64,000 nucleotides of DNA from an uncultured cyanobacterium (GTDB taxonomy: Bacteria > Cyanobacteriota > Cyanobacteriia > Cyanobacteriales > CAWUOF01), in contig CAVUSO010000001.1 in the NCBI GenBank assembly GCA_963744145.1, positions 192,001 through 256,000 of the forward strand, read 5' to 3'. The notes under the pieces are model-generated. The model worked only from the letters and a program-made list of their open reading frames with translations, ran no database searches and was not told the origin of the DNA. Of this stretch, positions 34,335-40,647 are shown one piece after another; position 1 is the first letter of the stretch, and each line of letters opens with the position of its first letter. The position numbers were made by a program, and so were the translations under genes.

Positions 34335-35447
34335 ATGTCAGATAAAATGAGTAAAGTTGTAATTATTGGTTGTGGAATTATTGGTGCAGCGATCGCTTAT
34401 GAACTTAGTCAAGTATCAGGACTTGAAATTACAGTGATTGATCAACAACAACCCGGACAAGCTGCTACTGCTGCTGCTCTTGGGGTATTAATGAGTAATC
34501 TGAGTTCTAAAACTAAGGGAAAATCTTGGCAATTACGTCAAATTAGTCTGCAACGTTATGAAACTCTGATTCCAGAATTAGAAAATCTCACCAAGCTGAA
34601 AATTCCTTTTAATCGTCACGGAATTCTGATGTTGGGTTGTCTGGAAGAAGAGTTGGTTTCCTGTGAAAGGTTAGTGCGGATTCGTCATTTCCAAGGGTTG
34701 CAATTAGAATTTTGGGATCAAACCCGAGTTGAGTCTCAATGTCCTCATCTTCATCTTGAACAAGTGATCACTGCTGTTTATTCTCCCCAAGATCGACAAG
34801 TAGAACCTTTAGCTCTTACCCAAGCTTTGATTGCAGCTGCTAAACTTCATGGTGTTAATTTTAAGTTTGGAGTTAAGGTGATCGACGCAGACTATATTAA
34901 TGAAACAGCATCTTCCCGTCGATGTCAATCTATTCATACTACTGAAGGATCGCTCCAGGTTGATTGGTTAGCGATCGCTGCTGGTAATGGTTCAACTCCC
35001 TTAACTGTTGCTCTCAACCAACCAGTAGACATTAGACCAGTTTTAGGTCAAGCTTTGCACTTGCGTTTACCCCAACCTTTAGGACATCCAGATTTCCAAC
35101 CAATTATTACGATTAATGATACTTATATTGTACCCCTAGGTCAAGGTGATTATTGGGTAGGTGCGACCTTAGAGTTTCCCGATGGTAAAGATGATCTTGT
35201 TGCTGTCCCCGCAGCATTAACTACATTAAAAGAACGCGCTATCTCTTTTTGTCCTGGATTAGCTGAAGCTACAGTGATTAGCACTTGGTCTGGTTTACGT
35301 CCACGTCCTGAAGAACGGGGAGCACCAATTATTGAATATTTACCTAATTATAGTAATGTAGTTCTCGCTACAGGTCATTATCGCAATGGGGTATTACTTG
35401 CTCCAGCTACAGCGATCGCGGTCCGACAGATGATTAGCAAAAATTGA
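34335..35447 (+). CDS. FAD-dependent oxidoreductase (DAO/glycine oxidase-like)
   Basis: GCGIIG, WSGLRP, GHYRNGVLLAP. Confidence 0.88.
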   Translation: MSDKMSKVVIIGCGIIGAAIAYELSQVSGLEITVIDQQQPGQAATAAALGVLMSNLSSKTKGKSWQLRQISLQRYETLIPELENLTKLKIPFNRHGILMLGCLEEELVSCERLVRIRHFQGLQLEFWDQTRVESQCPHLHLEQVITAVYSPQDRQVEPLALTQALIAAAKLHGVNFKFGVKVIDADYINETASSRRCQSIHTTEGSLQVDWLAIAAGNGSTPLTVALNQPVDIRPVLGQALHLRLPQPLGHPDFQPIITINDTYIVPLGQGDYWVGATLEFPDGKDDLVAVPAALTTLKERAISFCPGLAEATVISTWSGLRPRPEERGAPIIEYLPNYSNVVLATGHYRNGVLLAPATAIAVRQMISKN

Positions 35448-35463
35448 TGACTATTTCCTTAAG

Positions 35464-37035
35464 TCATTTATGGATGATTTTTTGGTTACCATATATAGCT
35501 ATAGCTTGTCCAGGTGGTACTTCTAGATTACTGAAACCATTTGCTGACACTGTGATCATATTACCAGTACAATTTTGACCATCTTTAGTTAATTCGCCCG
35601 TAATAATATTACAATATAGTCCTGGTGACAATCCAGTTTGTAATCTATGTTTTAAAGCAAAATTCTCTTTATTAAGAGCGACAAAACCTTGATTACCTCG
35701 ACTAAAAGCAATTTGATTATTACCGTTACTCCACCAGTTAGAAATATAAAAATCTGTGGCTGTATAATTGCGAAATTCTACCATATTAGCGATCGCCGTT
35801 TGTCGATGTTCACAAATCCATCTCGAAAAGCAATTCCGACTATTATTTTTGTCCCTTCGACTACGCTCAGGGTAAACGTAAATATCCAGAGTGTTACCAA
35901 AAAAATCCGCCGGAGGTCCTTGATCACGCTCTTTAAAATCATAACTAGACATAATTTGCGGATATCCATAGGGCCAAGCTAACATAAAAATATTAGCTAG
36001 TGTATATAGTTGACCGTCTTTATAAGTAAGCACATGATGACTGACCCGATCTGCACGTTGGTTATCGTGGTTATCAACAAAGACGATCGCTTTTTGGCTA
36101 GGAATAAATCCATTAGTTAAGCCAAATTTCTTTAAAGATGCTAGTTGACTATATCGGAAAATATCGCTTAATTGTACACTATATTTAAATTCAGTTACAC
36201 TACCATTAGGAAAATATTCGGAAGCTTTGATCGGCTCATTACCATGATCAATTACTTCTTGATAAATAAAAGCTGGGTGATGCAGGAGCCGAAAAATAGC
36301 TTGGAGATCATTACTAGCAATATGTTTAGCCGCATCAATCCGAAATCCAGCTACTCCCAAGGTTAATAAATCATTCAGATAATCAGCTAAACGCGATCGC
36401 ACATATTCAGAGCTAGTATCAAGATCGGCTAAATGCACCAATTGACAATTTTGCACTTCCCAACGGTCTTGATAATTTTGGATATCATCATTACCATGAC
36501 GATGACAATGATGGAAATCTTTAAATGAATAAATTCCCGGATATTCATAACGACCAAACCAAGAACCAGCAAAGCCAATCTCAGTTTGTCCAGGTTCTAA
36601 AACTCCCGTAGTATGATTAAGCACCGCATCAACATAAATATCAACTCCTACTGCTTTACAGCGTTTTACCATATCCACAAATTCGGCGCGATTTCCACTA
36701 CGACTTGCAATTTTATAACTTACAGTTTGATAACGTTCATACCAAGGATTACCTATAATAACTCGATGTTCATTTACTGGTGAAACTTGAACTGCGGCAA
36801 ATCCTTTCGGACCAAGAAAATTCTCACATTCCCGGGCGATATCTGTCCATTTCCATTCAAATAAATGCACAAAAACTGTACGGTTTTTTTTAATTACTTG
36901 ATCAGACTTAACAGTTTCAGCAATACTAGATTGATCGGAAGCATGCTGTAAAGTTTGGTTGAAATAATTTTTGTCATAACTAAATATTACCAGTAAAAAA
37001 CTGGCCATAACCATCAAGAATATTTTTTTCCCCAT
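35464..37035 (-). CDS. Secreted GH13 alpha-amylase (actinomycete/animal-like type)
   Basis: Signal peptide; VHLFEW, GFRIDAAKH, YQEVID, FVDNHD, WICEHR. Confidence 0.92.
   Translation of the reverse strand: MGKKIFLMVMASFLLVIFSYDKNYFNQTLQHASDQSSIAETVKSDQVIKKNRTVFVHLFEWKWTDIARECENFLGPKGFAAVQVSPVNEHRVIIGNPWYERYQTVSYKIASRSGNRAEFVDMVKRCKAVGVDIYVDAVLNHTTGVLEPGQTEIGFAGSWFGRYEYPGIYSFKDFHHCHRHGNDDIQNYQDRWEVQNCQLVHLADLDTSSEYVRSRLADYLNDLLTLGVAGFRIDAAKHIASNDLQAIFRLLHHPAFIYQEVIDHGNEPIKASEYFPNGSVTEFKYSVQLSDIFRYSQLASLKKFGLTNGFIPSQKAIVFVDNHDNQRADRVSHHVLTYKDGQLYTLANIFMLAWPYGYPQIMSSYDFKERDQGPPADFFGNTLDIYVYPERSRRDKNNSRNCFSRWICEHRQTAIANMVEFRNYTATDFYISNWWSNGNNQIAFSRGNQGFVALNKENFALKHRLQTGLSPGLYCNIITGELTKDGQNCTGNMITVSANGFSNLEVPPGQAIAIYGNQKIIHK
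35853..35876. repeat. 24-nt short dispersed repeat inside the amylase ORF
   Basis: CCCTTCGACTACGCTCAGGGTAAA, identical to 59695..59718. Confidence 0.9.
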
Positions 37036-37322
37036 ATTTAATCAGCTATTTCTCATGATAGTGTCAAAATTCGATACAACTTAGACCCTTAATTTTCCGG
37101 AATAGCTTTTTAGCCTTGAATATCGGCTCTAAATAATTATGGTTAGCAATAATATATTTTTTTCTCAGTCGAAATAAATAGTATTTTTATCTGAAAATCT
37201 AGTTATGCTTGACTCAAACAGTTAAACAGAATAAATCTTAAGCTTTTTTTCATAAATAATAGCTCAGGTAAAAAGTAACATGGGGATGTTGATCAGTTCT
37301 TGATTATTAGGAGAAAATTAGG

Positions 37323-37742
37323 ATGCCTACGCTGATTACAACAACCTTGCCCGGTTTGGGAATAGGATATGTTTGCAAAGTAGGTTATATGGCTTCCCCA
37401 GGAGCTAATTATGCTTTATTAGAACTGAAAACGGGTAATGATATTGGGTTAAGTGCATCTGCTCGTTTTAGTGAAGGTACTGTTGTCCTTAATTCTTACA
37501 TTAATGGAAATTGGGGCAAAGAAGAAAGACCGACTGGGTTTCCCTTAGTAATCGGACAACAATTATCTGTAATTGTGATTGTTCTACCAACCGAATTTGA
37601 AATTCAAGCGGTTCAGGAAGGTACAGAAAATCAACCCTGGGTATATAAATATCAGCATCGTTTACCAGCCAGCTTTGATGTAGTTAACTTTACTGCTGAA
37701 AATGTTACTATGAAAGATTTTTTTGTAACCAAAGCGTTTTAG
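37323..37742 (+). CDS. Galectin-like carbohydrate-recognition domain protein
   Basis: GND..S.S.RF...VVLNS...GNWGKEER...FP...G...Y.HRLP matches the galectin CRD pattern; GGAG RBS upstream. Confidence 0.8.
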   Translation: MPTLITTTLPGLGIGYVCKVGYMASPGANYALLELKTGNDIGLSASARFSEGTVVLNSYINGNWGKEERPTGFPLVIGQQLSVIVIVLPTEFEIQAVQEGTENQPWVYKYQHRLPASFDVVNFTAENVTMKDFFVTKAF

Positions 37743-37896
37743 TAGATTTAAGCTAAGAGCGCGATTACTATAGTTTCTTATAGCGATCGCGCTGTAAAAA
37801 TGAAAAAGTGAGTTAATTTTATTGGCTGAGAAAATAGCTATTTTAATATAATTAAACGCTTTCAAATTATCTAGAAGCAAATTCAACTTTTTAGGT

Positions 37897-38106
37897 TTAT
37901 AAAAGTTCTTCTAGAAAGAGAACAAGTTGATGAGCTAGACTCTGAGAATCATAGTTAATATCTACGTTGGGTTCTAATTCAGAAACCGGCTTTATCCCTT
38001 CTTCTTTAGCTAATTCACTAACTAAAAATTGGATCACCCGGAGCTTATCAGCATGGGATAATTGGCGCAGTTCGGCAAGTAATTCGTCAATTTGCATAGC
38101 AGGCAA
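37897..38106 (-). CDS. Small hypothetical protein
   Basis: LRQLSHADKLRVIQFLVSELAKEE helical ORF of a type common in cyanobacteria. Confidence 0.6.
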   Translation of the reverse strand: MPAMQIDELLAELRQLSHADKLRVIQFLVSELAKEEGIKPVSELEPNVDINYDSQSLAHQLVLFLEELL

Positions 38107-38229
38107 TTAGATTTAGCATCCCCATTCTAGCACTTGCCAGCTTTTTTGCTATCAAAGCTAAATTACCTGCATCATCCTCAAAAGCATTATCAAAATTGTT
38201 GTCCGATCGCTAAAACACCATCATCAAAC

Positions 38230-38259: not shown

Positions 38260-38287
38260 CTTGAGTTAACTCATTAAATTGTCAAAA

Positions 38288-39706
38288 TTAGACATCATAA
38301 TAGAGAGCAAACTCATAAGGGTGAGGACGAAGCCGCATGGGGTTAACTTCATTATCGAGTTTGTATTTAATCCAAGTATCTAAAAAGTCGTTGGTAAATA
38401 CTCCAGGAGCTATTAAAAACTCATGGTCTTTTTCTAATGCTGCGAGTGCCCCTTCCAGAGAACCAGGAGTTGAAGGAACATTCTTCAATTCTTCTGGGCT
38501 GAGATCATAAATATCCTTATCCAGTGGTTCACCTGGGTCAATTTGATTTTTGATTCCATCAATTCCAGCACATAACATGGCTGCAAAAGCGAGGTAAGGG
38601 TTACAGGTAGCATCAGGACACCGGAACTCTAACCGTTTAGCTTTGGGATTATCACCAGAGAGGGGAATCCGAATTGATGCGGAACGATTACCTTGAGAAT
38701 AGGCTAAGTTTACCGGAGCTTCAAACCCGGGAACTAAGCGTTTGTAAGAATTGGTAGTGGGATTGGTAATTGCTAACAGGGCTGGTGCGTGCTTGAGTAA
38801 ACCACCAATATAGTATAGCGCCATTTGGCTCAGTTTCGCATACTTATCGCCAGCAAACAGAGGTACACCACCTTTCCAGATGGATTGGTGAGTGTGCATC
38901 CCGGAACCATTGTCATTAAACAGTGGTTTTGGCATAAAAGTAACAGTTTTACCGTATTTTTTAGCCACATTTTTAATGACGTATTTATAAGTCATCAAAT
39001 AGTCTGCTGCTTGAACTAAGGGTGCAAACCGAAAACCAAGTTCATTTTGACCACCTGTTGCTACTTCATGGTGATGCTTTTCAATGGGTACTCCACACTC
39101 TGCCATTGTCAGCAACATTTCCGTCCGGATATCTTGCATGGTATCTGTGGGAGCTACAGGGAAGTAACCTTCTTTGTAGCGAGGTTTGTAACCTAGGTTC
39201 GGACCTTCTTCTTTACCAGAGTTCCAACGTCCTTCAACTGTATCGACGTAATAAAAACCTTTATTTTCGCTTTGGTCAAATCGGACATCATCAAATATAA
39301 AAAACTCTGCTTCTGGGCCAATAAATGCCATATCGCCCAGACCAGTGCTAATTAAGTAATCGAGAGCTTTTTTCGCAATTGTCCGAGGGTCACGACTGTA
39401 CCATTCCCCTGTCCTTGGTTCTTTGATGCTACAGATTAGGCTCAAAGTCGGTTCTTTCATAAATGGGTCGATCCAGGCAGTCGTCGGATCGGGCACCATG
39501 GACATATCGGATTCGTTGATCGCTTTCCAACCGCGAATACTAGATCCGTCAAAGGGTACACCCTCAGTAAAGGAACTAGCATCAATTTGATTTTGGTAAA
39601 ATGAACAGTGTTGCCAAATTCCTGGCATATCGATGAATTTGAGATCGACAATCTTGATCCCTTTTTCTTGGATTAGATTTAAAACTTCTTGGGCTGTTTC
39701 AGGCAT
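38288..39706 (-). CDS. glnA: Glutamine synthetase type I
   Basis: [37 protein letters not shown]. Confidence 0.99.
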
Positions 39707-40137: not shown

Positions 40138-40647
40138 ATGCGGGACGCAGTTACCAGCCTAATTTCAAATTACGATATTACTGGTCGATATCTAGACCGG
40201 GATGCCATTGATTCGTTGAAATCCTATTTTGACACCGGATTAGCCAGAGTCAGCGCTGCTGCGGTGATTAATGCTAGTGCCACCGATATAGTCAAACAAG
40301 CAGGAACACAGTTATTTGCTGATGTCCCAGAATTGATTCGTCCAGGTGGAAATGCTTATACCACTCGGCGCTATGCTGCTTGTTTGCGGGATATGGATTA
40401 TTATTTGCGCTATGCCACTTATGCGTTGGTCGCTGGTAGTACAGATGTACTAGATGAGCGGGTACTTCAAGGTTTACGGGAAACTTACAACTCTTTAAGT
40501 GTGCCAATTGGACCGACGGTAATGGGTATTCAACTCCTCAAGGACATTGTGAAAGGAAAAGTAGCAGCTGCCAATATTCCCACTGGTGAATATTTAGATC
40601 AGCCCTTTGACTATTTAACTCGTGAGTTGAGCGAACAGGATATCTAG
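40138..40647 (+). CDS. apcF: Allophycocyanin beta-18 subunit
   Basis: MRDAVT, RPGGNAYTTRRYAACLRD; divergent from glnA. Confidence 0.95.
   Translation: MRDAVTSLISNYDITGRYLDRDAIDSLKSYFDTGLARVSAAAVINASATDIVKQAGTQLFADVPELIRPGGNAYTTRRYAACLRDMDYYLRYATYALVAGSTDVLDERVLQGLRETYNSLSVPIGPTVMGIQLLKDIVKGKVAAANIPTGEYLDQPFDYLTRELSEQDI

Follow-up and report, generated by a model that had tools for sequence, protein, structure and literature searches.

The DNA analyzed here, a 64,000-nt stretch of contig CAVUSO010000001.1 from an uncultured cyanobacterium (the window), harbors an open reading frame (ORF) whose product consists of a single galectin-type carbohydrate recognition domain (CRD). Research on galectins has dealt almost exclusively with those of animals and fungi, and galectins are classically defined by the sequence similarity of their CRDs together with an affinity for beta-galactosides. 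The host markers are a phycobilisome protein (40138..40647), the adjoining glnA, and HetR near a second galectin gene of the same genome; the phycobilisome protein and HetR identify the host as a cyanobacterium.

The ORF starts with ATG, and the homologs of its closest clade begin at the equivalent position. The translation scores 58.2 bits against the Pfam model Gal-bind_lectin (PF00337; E = 7.9e-16), above the gathering cut-off of 22.1, and the match pairs residues 26-117 with positions 24-114 of the 132-position profile. When the PDB was searched by sequence, 174 distinct chains matched at E<=1, and the best 60 of these 174 are all galectins, headed by 4hl0_A (2.8e-17; 4hl0 and 5glt match in two stretches at ~3e-17), with galectin-9 and galectin-3 chains at ~3e-10. 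An AlphaFold2 model built from a 14-row alignment (mean pLDDT 93.0, pTM 0.86) predicts the two-sheet beta-sandwich of galectins as an all-beta fold of ten strands. The Foldseek comparison of this model with the PDB has human galectin-7 and galectin-3 CRDs at its top (TMq 0.78-0.83, E ~1e-9, 19-26% identity) and comprises 377 matches at E<=0.001. As in prototype galectins there is one CRD per chain, and the open frame of 143 aa has no space for a second domain. Neither of the two galectin copies of the genome matched an NCBIfam family.

The window gene encodes a genuine galectin-fold protein with a single CRD. A previous sequence-only reading of this DNA had proposed a stand-alone galectin CRD, and both the profile score of the 139-aa domain and the predicted fold (TM ~0.8 to galectin-7 and galectin-3) bear it out. 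The ORF is short, and a chance frame with a spurious galectin likeness might be invoked, but this explanation is refuted by a Pfam score 36 bits over the cut-off, a confident fold prediction whose Foldseek matches are galectins, and dN/dS ratios below 1; end-to-end conservation among the homologs also speaks against it, and the probability left to it is vanishingly small. By inspection, the N-terminus has neither a charged n-region nor a cleavage motif; residues 2-13 form a beta strand in the AlphaFold2 model, and this N-terminus is common to the homologs. A homodimer prediction scored 0.29 against a mark of 0.42, which counts as evidence neither way.

The protein accordingly resembles the CRDs of galectin-7 and galectin-3 in family membership, predicted sandwich fold, length (~135-140 aa) and single-CRD layout, and it shares with animal galectins the lack of an evident leader peptide as judged by inspection and the sugar-site residues R, N, W, E and R. 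It differs from them by the low sequence identity, the exchange of His and Asn for Ser, VLN in place of VCN, the clade signatures EERPxGFP and C-terminal KDF[FY]VxKAF, and its cyanobacterial host.

The remodeled sugar-binding site

The sugar site of galectins comprises seven canonical contact residues, namely H, N and R on strand S4, N on S5, and W, E and R on S6. Five of the seven are kept in the window galectin (R48, N57, W64, E67 and R69), whereas the His and Asn positions are taken by S44 and S46, and in the alignments S44-A45-S46-A47-R48 stands in place of H-x-N-P-R. The exchange of H-x-N for S-x-S and the retention of the other five positions had both been noticed by eye; the former holds in the PDB alignments, the clade alignments and the residue table, and the latter was likewise confirmed. 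The motif is encoded by AGT GCA TCT GCT CGT, compared with CAT ATC AAT CCC CGT in the paralog, and it is not a sequencing slip because at least eight base changes across four codons (our own count) separate the two versions.

The alterations are unevenly distributed over the domain. All of the 14 aligned sequences agree at R48, V55, N57, W64, E67 and E68, and R69 is nearly invariant; position 34 is Asn in 13 of the 14, animal CRDs included, and Glu in the window galectin. At 74 clade-conserved columns the window copy shows 13 private departures, compared with 0-9 in ten other members and 19 in P0018. Four of the 13 (N34E, H44S, N46S and P47A) lie on the S3/S4 face, where the radical changes cluster; most of the 13 are conservative. 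Residues 48-80, which correspond to S5-S6 and hold N57, W64, E67 and R69, are free of private departures.

All seven contact residues are present in 13 of the 18 tabulated bacterial-type domains, and the S/S combination occurs in the window copy only. The motif LH.NPR is also read in the clade members P0156, P0157 and P0158. Deviant motifs are found in two other stand-alone members, P0002 (H to L) and P0154 (N to R and R to Y, plus N34D), and the fused members of the clade are canonical at the sugar site in five of five cases, small numbers in which L028 equals L029 over the region read.

Table 1. Positions of the galectin gene, its sugar-site codons, neighboring features and related loci (window coordinates unless another locus is named)
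Feature	Position	Strand	Evidence
Galectin ORF, 139 aa + stop, single galectin-type CRD	37323..37742	+	ORF list, Pfam PF00337, AlphaFold2, Foldseek
Codons S44-A45-S46-A47-R48, remodeled strand-S4 motif	37452..37466	+	Alignments, codon comparison with paralog
Codons N57-R69 (VLNS...NWGKEER), conserved half of the sugar site: N57, W64, E67, R69	37491..37529	+	Alignment, residue table
Codon E34, change confined to the window copy, on the strand beside S4	37422..37424	+	Alignment, private-departure list
AGGAG, candidate Shine-Dalgarno-like motif ending 9 nt 5' of the galectin ATG	37309..37313	+	Read from sequence
AT-rich intergenic region between amylase and galectin, 287 bp	37036..37322	.	Sequence, GC 0.31-0.32
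Alpha-amylase, 523 aa, chloride-dependent "animal-type" (context only)	35464..37035	-	Pfam Alpha-amylase and Alpha-amylase_C, PDB
WGR + canonical galectin CRD, 503 aa	L005 1462-2973	-	
WGR + canonical galectin CRD, 621 aa	L006 574-2439	-	
WGR + canonical galectin CRD, 360 aa	L002 838-1920	+	
L009 lectin cluster, Cyanobacteriota MAG contig JBEDKD010000102.1	3440-9529		
L009 gene 1: Laminin_G_3 protein, 412 aa	3440-4678		
L009 gene 2: galectin + FRG1/Fascin-like module, 282 aa	4865-5713		
L009 gene 3: stand-alone galectin, 140 aa			
L009 gene 4: galectin + FRG1/Fascin-like module with Lys/His-rich linker, 304 aa			
L009 gene 5: GT1-type glycosyltransferase, 428 aa			

Paralog and phylogeny

The second galectin gene of the genome (G000:C1:6238907-6239323, minus strand) encodes a protein of 138 aa that is 64% identical to the window copy, reads LHINPR at the S4 motif and has seven of seven contact residues. 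It is located in a housekeeping context of gltX, hetR and aminotransferase genes. Both copies belong to a tight galectin clade of which 12 distinct proteins were recovered; it is small and rare, and most of its members have all seven contact residues. Provenance is named for two sources, the window genome and a Cyanobacteriota metagenome-assembled genome (MAG), and both are cyanobacterial.

The rarity of the clade is apparent from searches on a large scale. A word-based search of 5.8 billion clusters retrieved the window galectin itself and P0002 (61% identical) and nothing else, and a search for longer forms gave a single match, the 282-aa fused protein of the Cyanobacteriota MAG. When 1.84 billion representatives were searched exhaustively by HMMER, a profile of 3 rows yielded 880 matches at E<=1e-3. 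The best 150 of these 880 were used; scores at the top of the ranking are raised by proteins carrying as many as 24 repeats, single-domain proteins below ~63 bits fall outside, and the second tier described below is probably under-sampled.

Per-domain phmmer scores among the matches listed fall into distinct levels. The paralog, three L009 genes, P0002 and P0010 reach 166-193 bits, P0018 reaches 117 bits, a second tier (P0068, P0049, P0079, P0145 and P0139) lies at 46-61 bits, and all further matches listed, animal-type CRDs included, score at most 39 bits. With a clade profile the members obtain 215-271 bits, the next protein 99.7 and animal-type CRDs at most 60.4; the window galectin scores 248.6 bits, its own sequence being part of the profile. 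In a later profile search P0156, P0157 and P0158 emerged as further clade members, together with a P0145-like group on contigs of up to 308 kb, one member of which stems from a prokaryotic MAG catalog. The window galectin is 48-65% identical to nine other clade members from end to end and carries the clade signature LPxLGxGY...VLNS...WGxEER...GxPL...KYxHR...KDxxVxxAF.

In a tree of 73 domains the 12 clade rows are located on one side of a branch with an SH-aLRT support of 94. The window copy and its paralog are not resolved as sisters in a careful 17-row tree and are sisters in the quick 73-row tree (SH-aLRT 83), and a recent duplication within the genome may be the source of the pair. The phylogeny of the nearest homologs, which had been named as a check, documents a rare clade that is cyanobacterial wherever provenance is named. 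Such galectins are not unrecorded, as PF00337 has already been annotated in cyanobacteria.

Evolutionary rate

The terminal branch of the window copy measures 0.40 in the 17-row tree, compared with 0.03-0.29 in seven other members and 0.86 in P0018. Apart from P0018, the window copy is the most divergent and fastest-evolving member of the clade. Its frame is intact, the pairwise dN/dS ratios (NG86) to six relatives range from 0.29 to 0.54, and its dN to L009_282 and L009_140 amounts to 0.25, compared with 0.15-0.17 for the paralog. These values are indicative of a gene that is constrained, yet evolves faster than its paralog.

Functional interpretation

In galectins, the axial O4 of galactose is read by His and Asn of the S4 motif. 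From the solved galectins we assume, by homology, that W64 stacks on the sugar ring and that R48, N57, E67 and R69 hold hydroxyls of galactose and of the next sugar. Given the H44S and N46S exchanges next to the retained W64, R48, N57, E67 and R69, we propose that the window galectin is a leaderless lectin of shifted or weakened specificity, and we assign this reading a probability of about 0.5. The soluble protein would still bind carbohydrate on its Trp64 platform, and the reading of the galactose axial O4 by His and Asn would be lost; its specificity would move away from plain lactose/LacNAc-type ligands or weaken for them, and the paralog would provide the canonical activity. Candidate ligands would be the sheath or exopolysaccharide of the organism itself, or glycans of other organisms. 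The carbohydrate context of the clade, i.e. the FRG1/Fascin fusions, the Laminin_G_3 neighbor and the GT1 gene, also counts in favor of a lectin.

A further line of evidence comes from sponges. According to a review of sponge galectins (PMC13084444), Arg is the sole residue of LHFNPRF that is conserved in all sponge sequences, VLN or ILN takes the place of VCN, and Trp and Glu have mostly been retained; the review adds that the great majority of galectins share Arg, Trp and Glu. The window galectin keeps exactly this set, and the sponge pattern thus indicates that the loss of His and Asn is compatible with lectin activity. The likeness to sponge galectins such as CchG of Cinachyrella (PDB 4AGR), whose motif is quoted there as EQNVLVLNS, includes the variable heptapeptide, VLN/ILN, and the retained Trp and Glu (PMC13084444). 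In contrast to the window protein, which is known from sequence, sponge galectins are lectins purified from animals, and their absence from the best 60 of the 174 PDB matches suggests that they are not especially close relatives.

Several points weigh against the proposed specificity shift. Carbohydrate binding is a prediction for every member of the clade, and the placement of S44 and S46 with respect to W64 is deduced from alignment. Mutagenesis of mammalian galectin-1 reportedly showed His and Asn to be essential for lactose binding, and vertebrate galectin-related proteins without such residues are not known to bind lactose. An ortholog bearing S-x-S was found neither in the word search of the clusters nor among the matches listed in the profile searches. 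The pairwise dN/dS averages over both lineages, leaving a recent relaxation on the window branch possible, and the dN of the window copy, 1.5-1.7 times the paralog value, is as compatible with relaxation as it is with adaptation. Finally, the vertebrate galectin-related protein LGALSL2 lacks residues needed for beta-galactoside binding, as described in the abstract of PMC13696195; it shares with the window protein a galectin fold in which some contact residues are missing, and differs from it in lineage and in the residues that were lost.

The window gene might instead be read as an inactive galectin-related paralog that has lost binding in the manner of GRIFIN/LGALSL-type proteins and serves protein-protein contacts or drifts towards loss, leaving the canonical paralog as the lectin of the organism. 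The replacement of two of the seven contact residues and of the motif Pro, the change at the nearly invariant N34, the long terminal branch, the elevated dN and the singleton status of the variant, for which no S-x-S ortholog was found, all fit this explanation, and the damaged motifs of the stand-alone P0002 and P0154 suggest that stand-alone copies tolerate such losses. It is opposed by the intact frame with its dN/dS of 0.29-0.54, the S5-S6 half including W64 without any private change, the well-adapted codon usage, and the sponge galectins, which keep only the Arg of the heptapeptide (PMC13084444). On balance we consider inactivity the main rival reading, less likely than a lectin of shifted specificity but quite possible.

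The two genes form a natural matched pair within one genome: the paralog has the full site, and in the window copy the His/Asn half has been rebuilt and the Trp/Arg/Glu half left untouched. We regard this pair as the most useful product of the analysis, since it could show whether bacterial galectins bind beta-galactosides and what His and Asn contribute to specificity. The fused, glycosyltransferase-adjoining members of the clade could moreover be a sign that filamentous cyanobacteria possess a so far unexplored system of glycan recognition. The value of these findings is moderate, as the presence of galectins in cyanobacteria has already been annotated and the functional reading is inferred.

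A more far-reaching and quite improbable idea starts from the fungus Coprinopsis cinerea, whose CGL1 and CGL2 are leaderless cytoplasmic single-CRD galectins that act as defense lectins against grazers. The comparison is a purely functional analogy. The leaderless cyanobacterial galectins, alone or fused to a second lectin-like module, might likewise be grazer-directed defense lectins that become free upon the eating of a filament and attach to beta-galactoside glycans of the grazer, with target-driven remodeling of the motif and an old exchange between domains of life. If true, the retention of an "animal-type" sugar site by a bacterium would be accounted for, the repeated remodeling of the O4-reading half of the site in the stand-alone window copy, P0154 and P0002 would represent diversification rather than decay, and the grouping with signal-peptide-bearing two-CRD proteins described below would mark the ancient exchange of a weapon.

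Distribution and prior records

Among 401 genomes sampled from the whole phylum, 3 contain a PF00337 match that attains the cut-off, compared with none of 14 control genomes, which agrees with the assumption that galectins are rare in bacteria as far as this phylum is concerned. In the other two positive genomes the domain is part of long WGR-fused proteins, and a third protein of this type was retrieved with a protein query (Table 1). The WGR-type domains form a long separate branch among animal-type sequences in the quick 73-domain tree, apart from the tight clade, thus indicating that cyanobacteria hold at least two lineages of galectin domains. Further architectures were observed in the second tier: P0079 combines a galectin domain with an OAA-family lectin domain and WGR, and P0049 combines one with a pentaxin/LamG domain.

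The domain is uncommon in cyanobacteria, yet already annotated. The NCBI entry for P0153 bears the name "MAG: galectin 4 [Cyanobacteriota bacterium]" and the JGI entry for P0154 the name "Galactoside-binding lectin", and clade members carry precomputed PF00337 annotations in databases. Table 1 of a 2023 survey (PMC10655256) lists "Galactoside" (PF00337) in six cyanobacterial orders with 4+1+18+8+2+6 entries, in total 39 by our own sum over that table. The novelty is hence smaller than the sequence-only reading had assumed. The proteins recorded there share the family with the window galectin and are in silico records; the S-x-S variant, the clade structure and the fusions are described neither in these entries nor in Table 1 of the survey. 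A literature search turned up no biochemically characterized prokaryotic galectin, and the phrase "prokaryotic galectin" had zero occurrences among the matches listed.

Evolutionary origin

The base composition and codon usage of the galectin gene are typical of its host. Its GC content of 0.379 lies at the 31st percentile of 2132 long ORFs of the genome (genome GC 0.394); for GC3 (0.245) the percentile is the 14th, and for the codon-usage index (0.757), which measures similarity to the long ORFs of the host, it is the 97th. The GC content around the gene is 0.31-0.34, which is ordinary for intergenic DNA; the AT-rich flanks noted at the outset are thus real and inconspicuous. As the closest relatives of named provenance are cyanobacterial and the composition looks native, the window galectin is not a recent import from an animal. 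The label "animal-type" does not hold in the sense of a direct animal origin, given the 166-193 bits of the closest domains versus at most 39 for animal-type CRDs and the native-looking GC content and codon usage.

A recent acquisition from an animal or another eukaryote, with the adjacent amylase as part of a transferred glycan-interaction islet, has to be weighed against this background. The solved relatives among the best 60 of 174 PDB chains are all animal galectins, and the nearest ESM Atlas clusters are eukaryotic; indeed only eukaryotic galectin clusters were returned, which according to the tool itself is no evidence of transfer. Both genes are rare in the phylum (galectin 3/401, amylase 4/401), and the GC content dips to 0.31-0.38 over 35400-38200, compared with 0.40-0.44 in the flanks. 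Against these points stand an identity of 19-26% to animal CRDs versus 48-65% within the clade, the second genomic copy in an unrelated housekeeping context, the position of GC, GC3 and codon index within the distribution of the genome, the lack of co-distribution of galectin and amylase, which are not adjacent at any other clade locus, the absence of a relative among 41 pattern matches on viral contigs, and the absence of a mobile-element gene among the ORFs flanking the window galectin. The clade, composition and distribution evidence contradicts the recent version of the transfer, and we judge this scenario as a whole to be very improbable.

The deeper history is a separate matter. In the 73-domain tree a split with an SH-aLRT of 95 unites the tight clade, the second tier and P0168, P0048 and P0091 to the exclusion of the rest. 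P0168 and P0048 have a signal peptide, two CRDs and transcript-sized contigs and look eukaryotic; their N-terminal CRD bears the signature VLNS...WGxEERPxGFPF of the bacterial clade, and their C-terminal CRD is animal-like with HFNPRF. Based on this grouping with eukaryotic-looking two-CRD proteins, some deep transfer between domains of life is plausible.

Two attempts to locate an insertion were set aside. The gene for a neighboring FAD oxidoreductase is present in all 13 genomes inspected, among them that of the window. A synteny comparison of eight flanks (3-20 kb) by tblastn with ten window proteins recovered the oxidoreductase only and is uninformative, because the eight relatives do not preserve the order of genes at this locus. 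A 23-nt direct repeat (83% identical; 37052-37074 and 38270-38292) brackets the galectin gene and a 69-aa ORF; it was rejected as an insertion boundary and is probably due to chance. Its 10-nt core has 85 occurrences in the genome, compared with ~42 expected by our own rough estimate, and a terminator-like hairpin of glnA (38262-38235, minus strand) is reported as lying inside it.

Genomic neighborhood and clade loci

The amylase and galectin genes are divergently oriented, and the N-terminus of the amylase is hydrophobic and signal-like. Its best PDB matches are 1aqh and 1jd9 (~1e-146), followed by pancreatic and salivary alpha-amylases (~1e-124); the description of the neighbor as a divergent and animal-like amylase is thereby substantiated. 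Transfer of amylases between bacteria and animals has been treated in the literature (PMC7003070 and PMC3584928). The proposal of a small glycan-interaction islet is not supported by the comparison: the amylase is present in genome G005, which has no PF00337 match, the paralog resides among housekeeping genes, and the other clade loci contain a LamG lectin gene, further galectin genes and a GT1 glycosyltransferase, yet no amylase. Neither the distribution nor the clade loci revealed a functional link between galectin and amylase.

Several clade members are fused to an FRG1/Fascin-type module, with matches above the Pfam cut-offs, and the L009 cluster contains two such fusions (Table 1). A beta-trefoil fold of this C-terminal module may be supposed from the Pfam FRG1 and Fascin matches; the model of the fused member P0152, built from a 5-row alignment, is unusable (mean pLDDT 29.4). 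A 202-aa ORF of L028/L029 (4243-4851, plus strand) joins a LamG N-terminus to the end of a galectin domain and a fascin-like module. Compared with L009 genes 1 and 2, it looks like a deletion fusion and suggests gene turnover in the cluster.

In the window, a scan for promoter-like sites gave four, compared with a shuffled mean of 5.6, and is uninformative in the lack of any excess. Terminator-like sites number three, compared with 0.9 expected, and none of them lies directly 3' of the galectin ORF. An Rfam scan of the whole window at gathering thresholds had zero matches. The putative 69-aa ORF between galectin and glnA (37897-38106, minus strand) matched no Pfam or NCBIfam family. Directly 3' of the galectin stop codon, at 37743-37800, there are palindromes of the GCGATCGC type (AGAGCGCGATT...AGCGATCGCGCT), one of which is included in the inverted-repeat pair I4.

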